A program made the translations under genes and the position numbers. Shown in pieces: positions 35,651 through 40,262 of a stretch of DNA of 64,000 nucleotides; within the stretch, counting starts at the first letter, position 1, and each line of letters begins with the position of its first letter. The notes beneath the pieces were generated by a model. The model saw nothing but the letters and a program-made list of their open reading frames with translations, searched no databases and was not told the origin of the DNA. The stretch is from Escherichia phage BF15: the sequence record MW822007.1; one strand, written 5' to 3'.

Positions 35651-37069
35651 TTATGGATAGGTATAGATGATACCAGTTTCTAAAGCAGTTTTATGAATGA
35701 TGTATCCATTACGCGATTCTTGAACATCAACTTCTGGATAGTCTTTCATCATCTTCTGAAGAGTGTAACGATGCAAGTAGTATTTACTATCTGGATCTTC
35801 AGTTTTCCAATCTTTACCTTCTTCAGTCATTTTTTGGATTTCATCCATAACCCACCAACCGCACCAGATATAAGCTGAGCTACGATGTGGAAGAGGATGA
35901 ACATAAGGTAATTCACCTTCTGGTTCCGGAGCAACTTTATCAGTCACTTGAACTTGACCTGTGGCTTTAACTGTTTTACTATCATAGTCAGTTGCTGTAA
36001 CGACAGCAGTAACTTCAATAGTTTGACTTCCAATAGATGAGGTATCAACAGTATATACGTTAGTTGACCCTTCCACAGGAGAAGAATCTTTCTTCCATGA
36101 GTAAGTAATTTGTGCTGCTTCAGGTGCGCCAGTAACATTAGCAGTAAATGTAGCCGAAGCATCTTGCTGAACATTAATAGAAGGAGGAGTCAATGTAACC
36201 TGTGGATTCATTGTCTTCTTATTAACTGTCAATGATACTTCATTGGAAGTAACTTCCTTTTCATTATAATTTTCTGCAGTTACTTGGGCTACGCATTTAA
36301 TTCTTTTTACTCCACTTGTAGTTGGAGTATAGTTAAATGTAGAGTTAGTTTCTCCACCAACTTGTGAATCATCTACATACCACTGATACGTGGCAGACGC
36401 TCCATCAGGTTGAGAAGCTAAGGCAGCAGTAAATTGAACCGGGGTTCCAATTACTCCAGCAGCAGGACTAGCAGGAGTTACTGCCAAGGTAGTTGTCTGT
36501 GTCTTTTTATTAACCGTTAATGATACTTCATTGGAAGTAACTTCCTTTGCATCATAATCTGTCGCGGTTACTTGAGCTACACACTTAATTGTTTTAACTC
36601 CGCTTGTGGAAGGAGTGTAATTGAATGTAGCAGAAGTTGCTTCGCCCACAGGAGAACCGTCAACGTACCATTGATACGTAGCAGATGCGCCTGATGGCTG
36701 CGAAGCTAAGGCAGCAGTAAATTCAACGGCTGTTCCGATTACTCCTTCTGGAGGACTATTAGGAGTTATAGCTAAGGTAGTTGTTTGTGTCTTATTTTGA
36801 ACTGTGATAGTTGTACTAATTTCAGCTGTTTCAGCTTCAGAATCAGGAATAGTATTTGTTGCAACTACCTTAATAGTCTTTTGACCAGCAGGTCCTTTTA
36901 ATACATAATCAAAAGTTGCTGCTGATCCTTCTTGGGGAGCATTATCTACGCTCCAAGCATATGTAATAGTTCCACCTCCAGTTTCACCACTGGGTGTAGC
37001 AGTAAACTGCTGAGTCTGATCTATAACTCCAGTAGGTGTTTTAGGAGTTATATCAACTGTAAAAGCCAT
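35651..37069 (-). CDS. hoc: Hoc highly immunogenic outer capsid protein, with one extra Ig-like domain
   Basis: 472 aa; N- and C-terminal sequence as T4 Hoc (C-terminal capsid-binding region ...YVHPLPHRSSAYIWCGWW...); internal tandem repeat of about 96 aa. Confidence 0.9.
   Translation of the reverse strand: MAFTVDITPKTPTGVIDQTQQFTATPSGETGGGTITYAWSVDNAPQEGSAATFDYVLKGPAGQKTIKVVATNTIPDSEAETAEISTTITVQNKTQTTTLAITPNSPPEGVIGTAVEFTAALASQPSGASATYQWYVDGSPVGEATSATFNYTPSTSGVKTIKCVAQVTATDYDAKEVTSNEVSLTVNKKTQTTTLAVTPASPAAGVIGTPVQFTAALASQPDGASATYQWYVDDSQVGGETNSTFNYTPTTSGVKRIKCVAQVTAENYNEKEVTSNEVSLTVNKKTMNPQVTLTPPSINVQQDASATFTANVTGAPEAAQITYSWKKDSSPVEGSTNVYTVDTSSIGSQTIEVTAVVTATDYDSKTVKATGQVQVTDKVAPEPEGELPYVHPLPHRSSAYIWCGWWVMDEIQKMTEEGKDWKTEDPDSKYYLHRYTLQKMMKDYPEVDVQESRNGYIIHKTALETGIIYTYP
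36213..36790 (-). repeat. intragenic tandem duplication (2 x about 288 bp) within hoc
   Basis: Two adjacent about 288-bp units roughly 85 percent identical by eye, encoding two near-identical about 96-aa Ig-like segments. Confidence 0.85.
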
Positions 37070-37759: not shown

Positions 37760-37772
37760 AATATTTCCTCAG

Positions 37773-37780
37773 TATAAATA
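37773..37780 (+). promoter_or_regulatory. late promoter for uvsW
   Basis: Exact TATAAATA 29 nt upstream of ATG 37810. Confidence 0.7.
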
Positions 37781-37809
37781 TAGATATATTTATTACATGG
37801 TATTTAGAC

Positions 37810-39321
37810 ATGACTGACATTAAAGTACATTTTTATGATTTTAGTCACGTGAGAATTGATTGTGAAGAAAGTACATTTCATGAACTCCGTGATTTCTTTA
37901 GCTTTGAAGCTGATGGATATCGTTTTAATCCGAAATACAAATATGGTCACTGGGATGGACGAATCCGTCTATTAGATTATAATCGCCTTCTTCCATTCGG
38001 CTTAGTTGGGCAAATTAAAAAGTTCTGTGATAACTTTGGCTATAAAGCCTGGATTGACCCGCAAATTAACGAAAAAGAAGAATTATCAAGAAAAGATTTT
38101 GATGAATGGCTTTCTAAATTAGAAATCTATTCAGGAAATAAAAGAATTGAACCACACTGGTATCAAAAAGATGCAGTGTTCGAAGGATTAGTTAATCGTC
38201 GTAGAATTCTTAATCTTCCAACATCCGCAGGTAAATCTTTAATTCAAGCTTTGCTTGCACGTTATTATTTGGAAAATTATGAAGGTAAAATTCTTATCAT
38301 TGTTCCAACAACTGCTCTGACAACTCAGATGGCTGATGACTTTGTTGACTATCGTTTATTCAGTCATGCAATGATAAAGAAAATCGGCGGCGGAGCATCA
38401 AAAGATGATAAATATAAAAATGATGCACCGGTAATTGTTGGTACATGGCAAACTGTAGTAAAACAACCAAAAGAATGGTTCTCACAGTTTGGAATGATGA
38501 TGAATGATGAATGTCATCTTGCTACAGGAAAAAGTATTTCATCTATCATATCAGGTTTAAATAACTGCATGTTCAAATTTGGTCTATCAGGTTCATTACG
38601 TGATGGCAAAGCTAATATCATGCAGTATGTTGGAATGTTTGGTGAAATATTTAAGCCAGTAACGACTTCTAAATTGATGGAAGATGGACAAGTAACTGAG
38701 TTAAAAATTAATAGTATTTTTCTTCGCTATCCCGATGAGTTCACTACTAAATTAAAGGGAAAAACTTACCAAGAAGAAATAAAAATTATTACTGGGCTCA
38801 GTAAAAGAAATAAATGGATCGCTAAATTAGCTATTAAACTTGCGCAAAAAGATGAAAACGCTTTTGTCATGTTTAAGCATGTATCACATGGTAAAGCTAT
38901 TTTCGATTTAATTAAAAATGAATACGATAAAGTTTATTACGTATCAGGGGAAGTTGATACTGAAACACGCAACGTAATGAAAACCTTAGCTGAAAATGGT
39001 AAAGGAATAATTATAGTAGCTAGTTATGGTGTATTTTCTACTGGTATTTCAGTTAAAAATCTACATCACGTTGTTTTAGCGCATGGTGTTAAATCTAAAA
39101 TTATTGTATTGCAAACAATAGGTCGCGTATTACGTAAGCATGGTTCTAAAACAATCGCAACGGTCTGGGACCTCATAGATGACGCGGGCGTAGTTTCTAA
39201 ATCAAAAACATCTTCTAAAAAATACTCGCATTTAAACTATCTTTTAAAACATGGACTTGATCGTATTCAGCGTTATGCTGATGAGAAGTTTAATTATGTG
39301 ATGAAAGAGGTTAAACTTTGA
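37810..39321 (+). CDS. uvsW: UvsW DNA/RNA helicase
   Basis: 503 aa; helicase motifs PTSAGKS and DECH; length as T4 UvsW; TATAAATA upstream. Confidence 0.9.
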   Translation: MTDIKVHFYDFSHVRIDCEESTFHELRDFFSFEADGYRFNPKYKYGHWDGRIRLLDYNRLLPFGLVGQIKKFCDNFGYKAWIDPQINEKEELSRKDFDEWLSKLEIYSGNKRIEPHWYQKDAVFEGLVNRRRILNLPTSAGKSLIQALLARYYLENYEGKILIIVPTTALTTQMADDFVDYRLFSHAMIKKIGGGASKDDKYKNDAPVIVGTWQTVVKQPKEWFSQFGMMMNDECHLATGKSISSIISGLNNCMFKFGLSGSLRDGKANIMQYVGMFGEIFKPVTTSKLMEDGQVTELKINSIFLRYPDEFTTKLKGKTYQEEIKIITGLSKRNKWIAKLAIKLAQKDENAFVMFKHVSHGKAIFDLIKNEYDKVYYVSGEVDTETRNVMKTLAENGKGIIIVASYGVFSTGISVKNLHHVVLAHGVKSKIIVLQTIGRVLRKHGSKTIATVWDLIDDAGVVSKSKTSSKKYSHLNYLLKHGLDRIQRYADEKFNYVMKEVKL

Positions 39322-39905
39322 ATTATAAATTAATATACGATAATTTAATTAATAGAGCCCAGAATCGGGCTCGCCTTAATGGATACACTGAAACTCATCA
39401 TATAATTCCTAGATGTATGGGCGGTACGGATGATAAGTGTAATTTGGTAGAACTAACAGCTGAAGAGCATTTTATAGCTCATAAACTTTTAGCTAAAATT
39501 CATCCAAACCATTACGGTATAATTAAAGCCGTTATATGTATGGGGATGAATTCAAAGACTCATGAAAGACACGTTAATAAATCTTACGCCTGGGAACGTC
39601 GTAAAATGGCAGAACTTCAATCAGGTGAAGGTAATCCATTTTACGGAAAACACCATACGGAAGAACATAAACAATATATGTCAAAACTCATGAAAAATCG
39701 TCCAATTACGTGGGGAAGTAAAATTAGTAAAACTAAAAGAATGAACCCAACAAAATGGACTGAAGAAGCTAAAAGATTGCATTCTATCAATCAGGTAAAA
39801 ATAATGGCATGTATGGAAGGAAACATTCCGCTAAATCTATTCAGAAAATTAAAGATAACATGCCAGATAATTCAGGAGCTAATAACCCAGCTGCTAAACC
39901 TATAG
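39318..39905 (+). CDS. HNH homing endonuclease, N-terminal part (frame A)
   Basis: HNH motif HHIIPRCMGG...N...EEHFIAH; NUMOD-like repeat GNPFYGKHHTEEHKQYMS; no ATG start, ORF opens at TTG overlapping uvsW stop. Confidence 0.7.
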   Translation: MNYKLIYDNLINRAQNRARLNGYTETHHIIPRCMGGTDDKCNLVELTAEEHFIAHKLLAKIHPNHYGIIKAVICMGMNSKTHERHVNKSYAWERRKMAELQSGEGNPFYGKHHTEEHKQYMSKLMKNRPITWGSKISKTKRMNPTKWTEEAKRLHSINQVKIMACMEGNIPLNLFRKLKITCQIIQELITQLLNL

Positions 39906-40006
39906 AAGTAAATGGTGTTAAGTATAAATGCATGAAAGATGCTTCTAAAGCTACTGGATTATCAATGTACAAACTAAGAATACTTAGAAAAACAGTTAAT
40001 TTATAA
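39809..40006 (+). CDS. HNH homing endonuclease, C-terminal DNA-binding part (frame B, -1 relative to frame A)
   Basis: Frame B is open from about 39776 and encodes a second NUMOD-like repeat SGKNNGMYGRKHSAKS plus a C-terminal helix-rich tail; continuous with frame A if one A is added to the A5 run at 39797..39801. Confidence 0.55.
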   Translation: MYGRKHSAKSIQKIKDNMPDNSGANNPAAKPIEVNGVKYKCMKDASKATGLSMYKLRILRKTVNL

Positions 40007-40031
40007 GGGCTTCGGCCCTTTGGAGAAAAAG

Positions 40032-40262
40032 ATGTTACTAGAATTTAAACAATTTCTTTATGAAGCTTCTATTGATGAATTTATGGGTAAAATTGCATCA
40101 TGCCAAACATTAGAAGGTCTAGAAGAACTTGAAGCTTATTATAAGAAAAGAGTTAAAGAAACTGAATTAAAAGATACTGATGACATCTCTGTGAGAGATG
40201 CTTTGGCAGGAAAAAGAGCTGAATTAGAAGATTCAGACGATGAAGTAGAAGAAAGCTTTTAA
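40032..40262 (+). CDS. uvsW.1: UvsW.1 protein
   Basis: ATG at 40032 gives 76 aa MLLEFKQFLYEA...; acidic C-terminus; size and position as T4 UvsW.1. Confidence 0.75.
   Translation: MLLEFKQFLYEASIDEFMGKIASCQTLEGLEELEAYYKKRVKETELKDTDDISVRDALAGKRAELEDSDDEVEESF

Follow-up and report, generated by a model that had tools for sequence, protein, structure and literature searches.

T4 MobE is a free-standing HNH homing endonuclease encoded between nrdA and nrdB, and its gene contains an internal weak terminator in the 5' coding region (PMC2988022). Another T4 enzyme, SegE, is a GIY-YIG endonuclease encoded between inh and uvsW, and uvsW is its homing target (PMC2988022). In I-TevI and in I-HmuI-type enzymes, most of the binding energy comes from the C-terminal modules (PMC2988022), which are arranged as beads on a string (1i3j/1t2t for the I-TevI DNA-binding domain, 1u3e for I-HmuI).

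In the window, the 64,000-nucleotide stretch of Escherichia phage BF15 that was analysed (MW822007.1), a homing endonuclease gene (HEG) is found between the helicase gene uvsW and uvsW.1 (Table 1). The first-pass annotation had placed an HNH homing endonuclease, missing from T4, at this junction, and the comparison of the junction across relatives upheld this reading, the two host genes being separated by about 26 nt in T4 and in other HEG-less Tequatroviruses (including SF2-1 and OES_C-2). A search of 499 related phage records found the HEG in 48. The 'homing endonuclease' of T6 (YP_010067330.1) and about 47 other Tequatrovirus records share the locus, the TTG start, the Shine-Dalgarno sequence and the junctions; they are single-frame and 230 aa long, and the window protein, once repaired, is 97-100% identical to them. 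An orthologue of 226 aa, also single-frame, occupies the same locus in Klebsiella phage Roth16 (XNO92473.1, 69% identity).

Table 1. Features of the uvsW/uvsW.1 region, in coordinates of the window
Feature	Position	Strand	Remarks
uvsW helicase gene	37810..39321	+	503 aa; ORF list; 'DNA helicase' annotation in orthologous records
Diverged uvsW 3' block, HEG-linked	39186..39306	+	Comparison of HEG+ and HEG- genomes
Substitute UvsW C-terminus, GAGGTTAAACTTTGA	39307..39321	+	Junction alignments; UvsW C-termini across T4-like genera
HEG frame A	39318..39905	+	TTG start, 195 aa; ORF list
GC-rich hairpin GAGCCC-agaatc-GGGCTC	39355..39372	+	Inside 5' end of HEG ORF
(ATCA)2, lesion site	39786..39793	+	Intact copies have (ATCA)3 or (TCAA)3; one 4-nt unit gone
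HEG frame B	39794..40006	+	Residues 161-230 of intact enzyme; stranded 3' part with NUMOD3 copy 2 and I-TevI-like helix-turn-helix tail
A5 run	39797..39801	+	Unchanged relative to intact copies; not the lesion
Right junction, AAAACAGTTAATTTATAA	39988..40006	+	Resident uvsW terminal codons K-T-V-N-L-stop, now HEG C-terminus and stop
GGGCTTCGGCCC hairpin	40007-40018	+	Within 40007..40262, 3' of HEG; followed by GGAG Shine-Dalgarno
uvsW.1	40032-40262	+	76 aa; PF11637 UvsW-1; preceded by GGAG Shine-Dalgarno

Family and relatives of the uvsW-associated gene

By sequence comparison, the gene is classified as a mob-type free-standing HNH homing endonuclease gene; the first-pass annotation had proposed an HNH homing endonuclease. 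NUMOD3 was detected twice in profile searches (E 2.5e-8 and 4e-4), PHROG 655 'homing endonuclease' was matched at E about 5e-59 to 7e-60 and PHROG 12434 'HNH endonuclease' at E 3e-10, and tblastn alignments to mobE of T4, RB6 and LZ7 gave 38-64% identity (E 4e-21 to 5e-26). The Pfam HNH profile PF01844 scored 17.2 bits, under the cut-off of 21.4, and NCBIfam returned only a sub-threshold match to 'group I intron endonuclease'. The His...Asn...His catalytic motif is present: frame A holds H27/H28, N42, H51 and H55, and H28, N42, H51 and H55 are invariant in an alignment of 47 family sequences. In the AlphaFold model (pLDDT 87), strands at residues 25-28 and 43-46 and a helix at 48-61 form a predicted beta-beta-alpha element at 25-61. 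Residues 157-216 match the DNA-binding domain of I-TevI (PDB 1i3j, E 0.006), which was also the top Foldseek match; whole-chain fold searches of the model are dominated by helical-repeat noise, and the I-TevI-like tail and the HNH fold are weakly supported by them. The literature search turned up no paper on this enzyme.

The nearest T4 paralogue is MobE. The N-terminal HNH region, which opens with MNYxxIY... in both proteins, is 64% identical over 73 aa and 47% identical over 124 aa. Each gene has a start codon that overlaps the preceding stop and a GC-rich hairpin at the same 5' codons (PMC2988022), and each is free-standing and variably present in T-even phages. The hairpin has the codon position of the published weak terminator of T4 mobE, and the stems present there in Roth16 and T4 mobE differ in sequence; a scan for sigma-70 promoters and terminators gave background levels. 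Unlike MobE, the element resides in, and presumably targets, the 3' end of uvsW rather than nrdB, its C-terminal region consists of two NUMOD3 copies and an I-TevI-like helix-turn-helix, it starts with TTG instead of ATG and it replaces the last codons of its host gene; in addition, the window copy is frameshifted. The beads-on-a-string organization of the C-terminal region recalls I-TevI and I-HmuI, the similarity to I-HmuI being weak. I-TevI differs in having a GIY-YIG catalytic domain and in being intron-encoded, and the window holds no intron at this place.

The 3' end of uvsW is thereby added to the catalogue of HEG sites in T-even phages. SegE is of an unrelated nuclease family and lies at the 5' end of uvsW, so that with the HNH gene at the 3' end uvsW has a HEG of a different, unrelated family on either side. 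Both are found in T6 and in KFS-EC3; in the window, segE is absent and the inh-uvsW spacer measures 50 nt.

Start codon, insertion boundaries and flanks

The TTG at 39318-39320 overlaps the uvsW stop TGA at 39319-39321 (TTGA), and the coordinates of this overlap, which had already been pointed out, were verified. Since the preceding in-frame codon (39312-39314) is TAA, no start other than the TTG is available ahead of the HNH histidines. It was common to the six Tequatrovirus copies examined (five intact copies and the window), and in alignments it falls opposite Met1 of both MobE and the Roth16 orthologue. On this comparison, the TTG start is normal for the lineage, and the want of an ATG does not indicate decay. 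An early ATG is indeed missing, as had been noted, the first in-frame one being codon 34 (39417) and not codon 33. This ATG is taken as the start in some GenBank annotations with 197-aa products; it was rejected here because a protein begun there would have no HH in its HNH motif.

The insertion lies within the final four codons of uvsW, and the element itself brings these four codons and the stop (39307-39321) as a substitute C-terminus. GAGGTTAAACTTTGA encodes E-V-K-L-stop, versus T-V-N-L-stop in the resident gene, and it contains the Shine-Dalgarno sequence GAGG (39307-39310), 7 nt ahead of the TTG. In HEG-less phages such as T4 or SF2-1, the uvsW 3' end reads ...CGCTACGCAGATGAAAAATTTAATTACGTAATGAAAACAGTTAATTTATAAGGGC... 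The host gene is thus preserved through a substitute C-terminus and the resident stop is captured, which illustrates how a HEG can invade a coding end. In Roth16, the HEG starts with ATG in an ATGA overlap, the native KTVNL-stop of UvsW is kept, and the orthologue ends in ...LRQLRNL-stop, its stop overlapping the uvsW.1 ATG.

In Tequatrovirus, HEG+ and HEG- genomes diverge on the upstream side of the element only. Twenty-two fixed differences were found in the 121 nt upstream, a number that falls to six (at 39234-39300) once the HEG-less recombinant OES_C-2 is added, the sixteen others (39186-39228) being shared with it. The entire 39186-39306 block is therefore not strictly linked to the HEG, as OES_C-2 carries its upstream half. 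In the 500 nt downstream, inspection revealed no difference separating HEG+ from HEG- genomes (the automated marker failed in that stretch), and the 40007..40262 flank, with hairpin, Shine-Dalgarno and uvsW.1, is the same in both. A Jiaodavirus pair displays the same skew, with 46 differences in 300 nt upstream versus 7 in 300 nt downstream. The uvsW 3' block was found at 95% identity or more in 48 records of the collection, a count equal to that of the HEG. These patterns suggest that the block is a co-conversion tract, which probably includes the protected target site, and they narrow the likely target to the final 70 nt or so of uvsW in HEG-less genomes.

The frameshift and its distribution

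The first-pass annotation had described a protein split over two frames, with the break at the A5 run. The split itself is confirmed, frame A ending at 39905 and frame B being open from 39776 (over 39776..40006, with an internal ATG at 39809 that would give 65 aa), and the second NUMOD-like repeat and DNA-binding-like tail that had been seen in frame B correspond to NUMOD3 copy 2 and the I-TevI-like helix-turn-helix. The native sequence nevertheless runs through codon 159 and not just to the region of the A-run: codons 1-159 (39318-39794) encode the HNH domain and NUMOD3 copy 1, and codons 160-195 (39795-39902) are an out-of-frame tail of 36 nonsense residues.

The position assigned to the break was wrong. 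Alignment of the window with five intact copies leaves a single 4-nt gap in (ATCA)3, 4-11 nt upstream of an invariant A5, and a 111-nt query aligns to 115 nt in 47 of 47 phage records, T6 among them. The A5 run was discarded as the lesion because every intact copy examined also has it, as do the IMG/VR matches; intact copies read it as GGT AAA AAT AAT, the G-K-N-N of NUMOD3 copy 2. The intact homologues that were aligned or translated are single-frame, and their extra bases at the break are one 4-nt repeat unit, the run being A5, not A6. An additional A at this run does fuse the frames, the product having 229 aa and not the 230 aa proposed, whereas restoring ATCA yields a 230-aa protein identical to that of KFS-EC3. 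No other lesion was found in the HEG. It is because of the 4-nt deletion that NUMOD3 copy 2 and the helix-turn-helix stand in the other frame, whereas in intact orthologues the complete C-terminal DNA-binding region is in frame with the nuclease.

The same (ATCA)2 allele is present in an independent public assembly, a Logan contig from run SRR13517625 (L025), with 48 SNPs and one indel relative to the window over 2.4 kb (2% divergence). The HEG segment of these two genomes is nearly identical, and the allele could have had one origin and been spread by recombination rather than having arisen repeatedly. Its detection came only through a look-up of the 65-aa ORF B product and through cluster members. 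Searches with the exact DNA pattern of (ATCA)2 gave no match in IMG/VR, JGI metagenomes or GTDB genomes, the IMG/VR pattern allowing both alleles gave only two matches, both wild-type, and exact look-up of the 195-aa and 162-aa (ATG codon 34) products in the contig index returned none.

That the true genome might carry (ATCA)3 and an intact 230-aa gene, the deletion being a sequencing or assembly artefact, would be in line with the absence of the deletion from all 47 GenBank or IMG/VR copies, with the proneness of short tandem repeats to miscalling and with the homopolymer noise of the separate public contig L026, and is very improbable given the same 4-nt deletion in a contig of a different run, assembled independently and with 48 flanking differences, an identical 195-aa protein deposited for phage BF15 (QXN75883.1) and the loss of an entire 4-nt unit, atypical for homopolymer error. 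The sequence records thus indicate that the deletion is real and that the allele exists in at least two phages.

Two other broken alleles were observed. One, P0133, has a product of 125 aa in five contigs, with a +2 shift after codon 107 deduced from the protein sequence only. In the other, L026, A5 is reduced to A4 (-1), and the quality of this contig, with its obvious homopolymer noise, is doubtful. The three independent alleles (-4, -1 and +2) all leave the tail in the same -1 frame.

Readings of the frameshifted copy

Translation of the intact enzyme would be weak, kept down by the TTG start, by coupling to uvsW termination and by the mobE-like 5' hairpin. The enzyme would bind DNA through its NUMOD3/helix-turn-helix tail and, in a co-infecting phage that lacks the HEG, nick or cut the uvsW 3' end, whereupon repair would copy the HEG with its flank into that phage. 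Cleavage, target site and homing of the lineage are proposed from family membership and flank asymmetry. In the window, an ATCA unit was lost, most likely by replication slippage, so that translation from the TTG gives 159 native residues followed by 36 nonsense residues. With one unit lost and the tail in the -1 frame, this copy of a homing endonuclease gene is most probably a freshly inactivated pseudogene, and among the three options first offered, the decaying endonuclease is favoured, the sequencing indel is unlikely and -1 slippage is unsupported. This exemplifies the cycle of gain and decay of selfish endonuclease genes, of which it is an ordinary early decay step, and current understanding of homing endonucleases is unchanged.

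A functional truncation or split is very improbable as well. The 195-aa HNH and NUMOD3 protein, with or without a 65-aa DNA-binding peptide made separately from the ATG at 39809, would then keep some role, for example as a nickase of relaxed specificity or as a repressor. In its favour, catalytic residues and NUMOD3 copy 1 are undamaged, as is ORF B with its ATG, the allele has persisted in two genomes or more, and the truncated protein could retain some activity. On the other hand, no obvious Shine-Dalgarno sequence precedes 39809, translational coupling to this ATG is impossible because the frame A stop lies 96 nt downstream of it, and the stranded modules are those from which I-TevI and I-HmuI-type enzymes draw most of their binding energy (PMC2988022). 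Zero substitutions have accumulated since the deletion, which leaves no time for selection to show.

Programmed recoding is also very improbable. A -1 slip of tRNA-Lys on A_AAA_A (39797-39801) would yield 229 aa (...INQVKNNGMYG..., predicted junction peptide INQVKNNGMYGR) and, combined with the TTG start, a very low enzyme level. tRNA-Lys is prone to slippage on A-runs. A -1 slip at AAA 39798-39800 regains the native frame at the cost of one residue, an 8-bp stem begins about 4 nt past the run, and all three frameshift alleles place the tail in the same -1 frame. The probability that three alleles share a frame by chance is nevertheless about one in four, and the L026 sequence is doubtful in quality. 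Moreover, the A5 run is ancestral, and since every intact copy has it in a different frame, selection for slippage does not account for it. No X_XXY_YYZ heptamer was found in the zero frame, whose context CAG GUA AAA AUA permits only single-tRNA slippage on A_AAA (G_GUA_AAA does not fit), and the search for a downstream stimulatory fold gave z = -1.26, with 22 of 200 shuffles folding at least as well. The two-frame arrangement is itself rare and derived; the intact homologues that were aligned or translated have a single frame, and the four additional bases are present in all 47 records.

Very improbable, too, is a milder version, in which the gene would not be dead but tolerated in an attenuated, frameshifted state: in alleles with a lesion in or just upstream of the A-run, as in the window, leaky -1 slippage of tRNA-Lys on A_AAA_A could supply trace full-length enzyme. 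Were it true, this trace might suffice for homing with minimal toxicity.

The uvsW/uvsW.1 junction and identity of the interposed gene

The window derives from a T4/T6-like genome (Tequatrovirus) whose nearest phage-collection records are 97-98% identical, so that it is not itself part of that collection. When checked against ORFs and frames, all coordinates of the first-pass annotation were correct, and its observation of a frame-split HNH gene between uvsW and uvsW.1 was confirmed by the ORFs and by family matches. ORF A starts at a TTG that overlaps the uvsW stop by two bases (cTTTGA). As the in-frame codon 39312-39314 is TAA, this TTG is the sole available start 5' of the catalytic histidines; the earliest ATG is codon 34.

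Features of the uvsW/uvsW.1 region in the window
Feature	Coordinates	Remark
uvsW	37810..39321	ORF list
HEG ORF A	39318..39905	195 aa, TTG start
HEG frame B	39776..40006 (open)	second frame
uvsW.1	40032..40262	ORF list

The element is a Mob-type free-standing HNH homing endonuclease gene (HEG), as several lines of evidence indicate. In profile searches, frame A matched NUMOD3 at E 2.5e-8, and its match to Pfam HNH stayed under the threshold; frame B gave a second NUMOD3 match and a weak match to the I-TevI DNA-binding domain. The HEG product matched PHROG 655 'homing endonuclease' (E 5e-59 to 7e-60). The sole PDB sequence match of the intact protein was 1i3j, the I-TevI DNA-binding domain, over residues 157-216, essentially the portion stranded by the frame break. 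The nearest characterised paralogue is T4-type MobE (tblastn, 64% over the first 73 aa and 47% over 124 aa). All 47 aligned homologues share H28, N42, H51 and H55, and the AlphaFold model (pLDDT 87) contains a beta-beta-alpha element at residues 25-61. None of the 15 HEGs of the published T4 catalogue lies at this junction (PMC2988022), and a literature search found no paper describing a uvsW/uvsW.1 HEG. The element is thus of a known kind, a widely annotated, uncharacterised Mob-like HEG, at a locus absent from the T4 catalogue.

Loss of one tetranucleotide unit

The HEG is present in 48 of 499 related phage records, including T6, PST, HY03, ZN18 and KFS-EC3, and carrier records annotate it as a single CDS of 693 nt (230 aa) with the same TTG start. 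Alignment revealed one consequential difference: intact copies read TCT ATCA ATCA ATCA GG and the window TCT ATCA ATCA GG, the T6 version of the repeat being (TCAA)3. A 111-nt window probe aligned over 115 nt in all 47 matched records, so every one has the extra 4-nt unit. Consequently, the frame A product consists of 159 native and 36 nonsense residues, and residues 161-230 of the intact enzyme fall in the -1 frame. The break had been placed at the A5 run 39797-39801, which is in fact A5 in all intact copies examined, where it is read as GGT AAA AAT AAT (G-K-N-N) within the second NUMOD3 motif. With ATCA put back, the product has 230 aa and matches the KFS-EC3 protein at every residue, which shows that the deletion is the sole defect and is recent. 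This supports the earlier suggestion of a decaying homing endonuclease: the gene has most likely been caught just after inactivation through loss of one repeat unit.

Programmed -1 slippage, also proposed initially, is not borne out: the site lacks an X_XXY_YYZ heptamer, folding downstream of it is unremarkable (z = -1.26), the A-run is ancestral, and the split over two frames is a rare, derived condition. If tRNA-Lys slipped back one base at AAA 39798-39800, a 229-aa near-native protein would result, and at background level this may still occur. No second (ATCA)2 copy turned up when IMG/VR, JGI metagenomes and GTDB genomes were scanned by sequence pattern, but an exact look-up of the 65-aa ORF B product retrieved a Logan contig from SRR13517625, carrying the identical (ATCA)2 sequence and, with 48 SNPs and one indel relative to the window across 2.4 kb, derived from a different phage. 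In addition, QXN75883.1 (Escherichia phage BF15, 195 aa), in the protein's 90% cluster, has the same sequence as the frame A product, although this deposit may come from the window's own genome. A one-off assembly error is therefore unlikely.

Another broken allele, a 125-aa product (P0133) shifted after GEGNP (codon 107), occurs on five contigs from other samples. In a T6-type contig (Logan ERR4622922, 1..40), the A5 run is A4; given two other A-run indels within 900 nt on this contig, that allele may be read noise.

Insertion anatomy and expression signals

In HEG-less genomes uvsW ends ...ATG AAA ACA GTT AAT TTA TAA, followed by GGGCTTCGGCCC. In HEG+ genomes it ends ...ATG AAA GAG GTT AAA CTT TGA, and the HEG itself ends ...AGA AAA ACA GTT AAT TTA TAA GGGCTTCGGCCC, which places the element (39307-39991) inside the last four uvsW codons. 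It brings a look-alike UvsW C-terminus, EVKL replacing TVNL (MK(T/Q)(V/I)(N/D)L across genera), while the displaced uvsW codons form the terminus of its own reading frame. The replacement C-terminus contains GAGG 7 nt 5' of the TTG. In Tequatrovirus, an ATG start is a single synonymous uvsW change away (CTT to CTA), and TTG is kept in 6/6 Tequatrovirus copies examined. The orthologue of Klebsiella phage Roth16, 69% identical and at the same junction, instead has an ATG start in an ATGA overlap; unlike Tequatrovirus HEG+ copies, its UvsW retains the native KTVNL-stop, and its HEG stop overlaps the uvsW.1 ATG. In KP1079, a HEG-less relative of Roth16, uvsW and uvsW.1 overlap at CTATGA.

The TTG is served by a good Shine-Dalgarno, and its overlap with the uvsW stop resembles the UAAUGA coupling of nrdA/mobE (PMC2988022). 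Near the 5' end of the coding sequence, a GC-rich hairpin (39355-39372) occupies the codons at which T4 mobE has its documented weak internal terminator (PMC2988022). Hairpins stand at the matching codon position in the window, Roth16 (L023, 2033..2051) and mobE of a mutant T4 clone (L024, 832..853) with different stem sequences, and structure rather than sequence may be conserved. The TTG, the stop/start overlap and the hairpin agree with the tight down-regulation that is usual for phage HEGs.

In the T4 reference NC_000866 (L005, 2178..3941), uvsW remains annotated as one fused gene of 587 aa, and the sequence at the GGGCTTCGGCCC hairpin reads AATAAGCTTCGGCCC, unlike all relatives; this is an old sequencing error that is already known (PMC1524935, PMC6486255).

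Flanking divergence and neighbouring genes

The differences fixed between HEG+ and HEG- Tequatrovirus (six and five sequences compared) number 22 and all fall at 39186-39300, within the final 121 nt of uvsW; inspection of the 500 nt downstream of the element found no difference separating the two groups. In HEG-less OES_C-2 (L027, 1201..1342), the upstream half of the uvsW 3' end is of HEG+ type (...VVSKSKTSSKKYS...) and the last ~70 nt of HEG- type, which reflects either recombination or a remnant left after HEG loss; with this phage included, six sites (39234-39300) stay strictly HEG-linked, several of them common to Roth16. A Jiaodavirus pair displays the same asymmetry (46 differences upstream vs 7 downstream, per 300 nt). 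Such asymmetry would be expected of an enzyme that recognises the 3' end of HEG-less uvsW and of an element that travels with a resistant, co-converted flank.

At inh-uvsW, the window has only a 50-nt spacer (37760..37809) and lacks segE, a 618-nt GIY-YIG gene found there in T4, T6 and KFS-EC3 and catalogued in T4 with uvsW as its target (PMC2988022). Two independent HEG sites, each variably occupied, thus flank uvsW.

In the mutant T4 clone OL964745 (L024, 801..1497), mobE carries two overlapping CDS annotations, of 240 nt and 471 nt; either this Mob-type gene is split as well or the annotation is at fault. Finally, hoc (35651..37069, minus strand) encodes 472 aa vs 376 aa in T4 and SF2-1 and has a tandem pair of almost identical Ig-like segments of ~95 aa, TTLAITPNSPPEGVIG...SLTVNKKTQ and TTLAVTPASPAAGVIG...SLTVNKKT, so that this head-decoration protein seems to have undergone an additional domain duplication.
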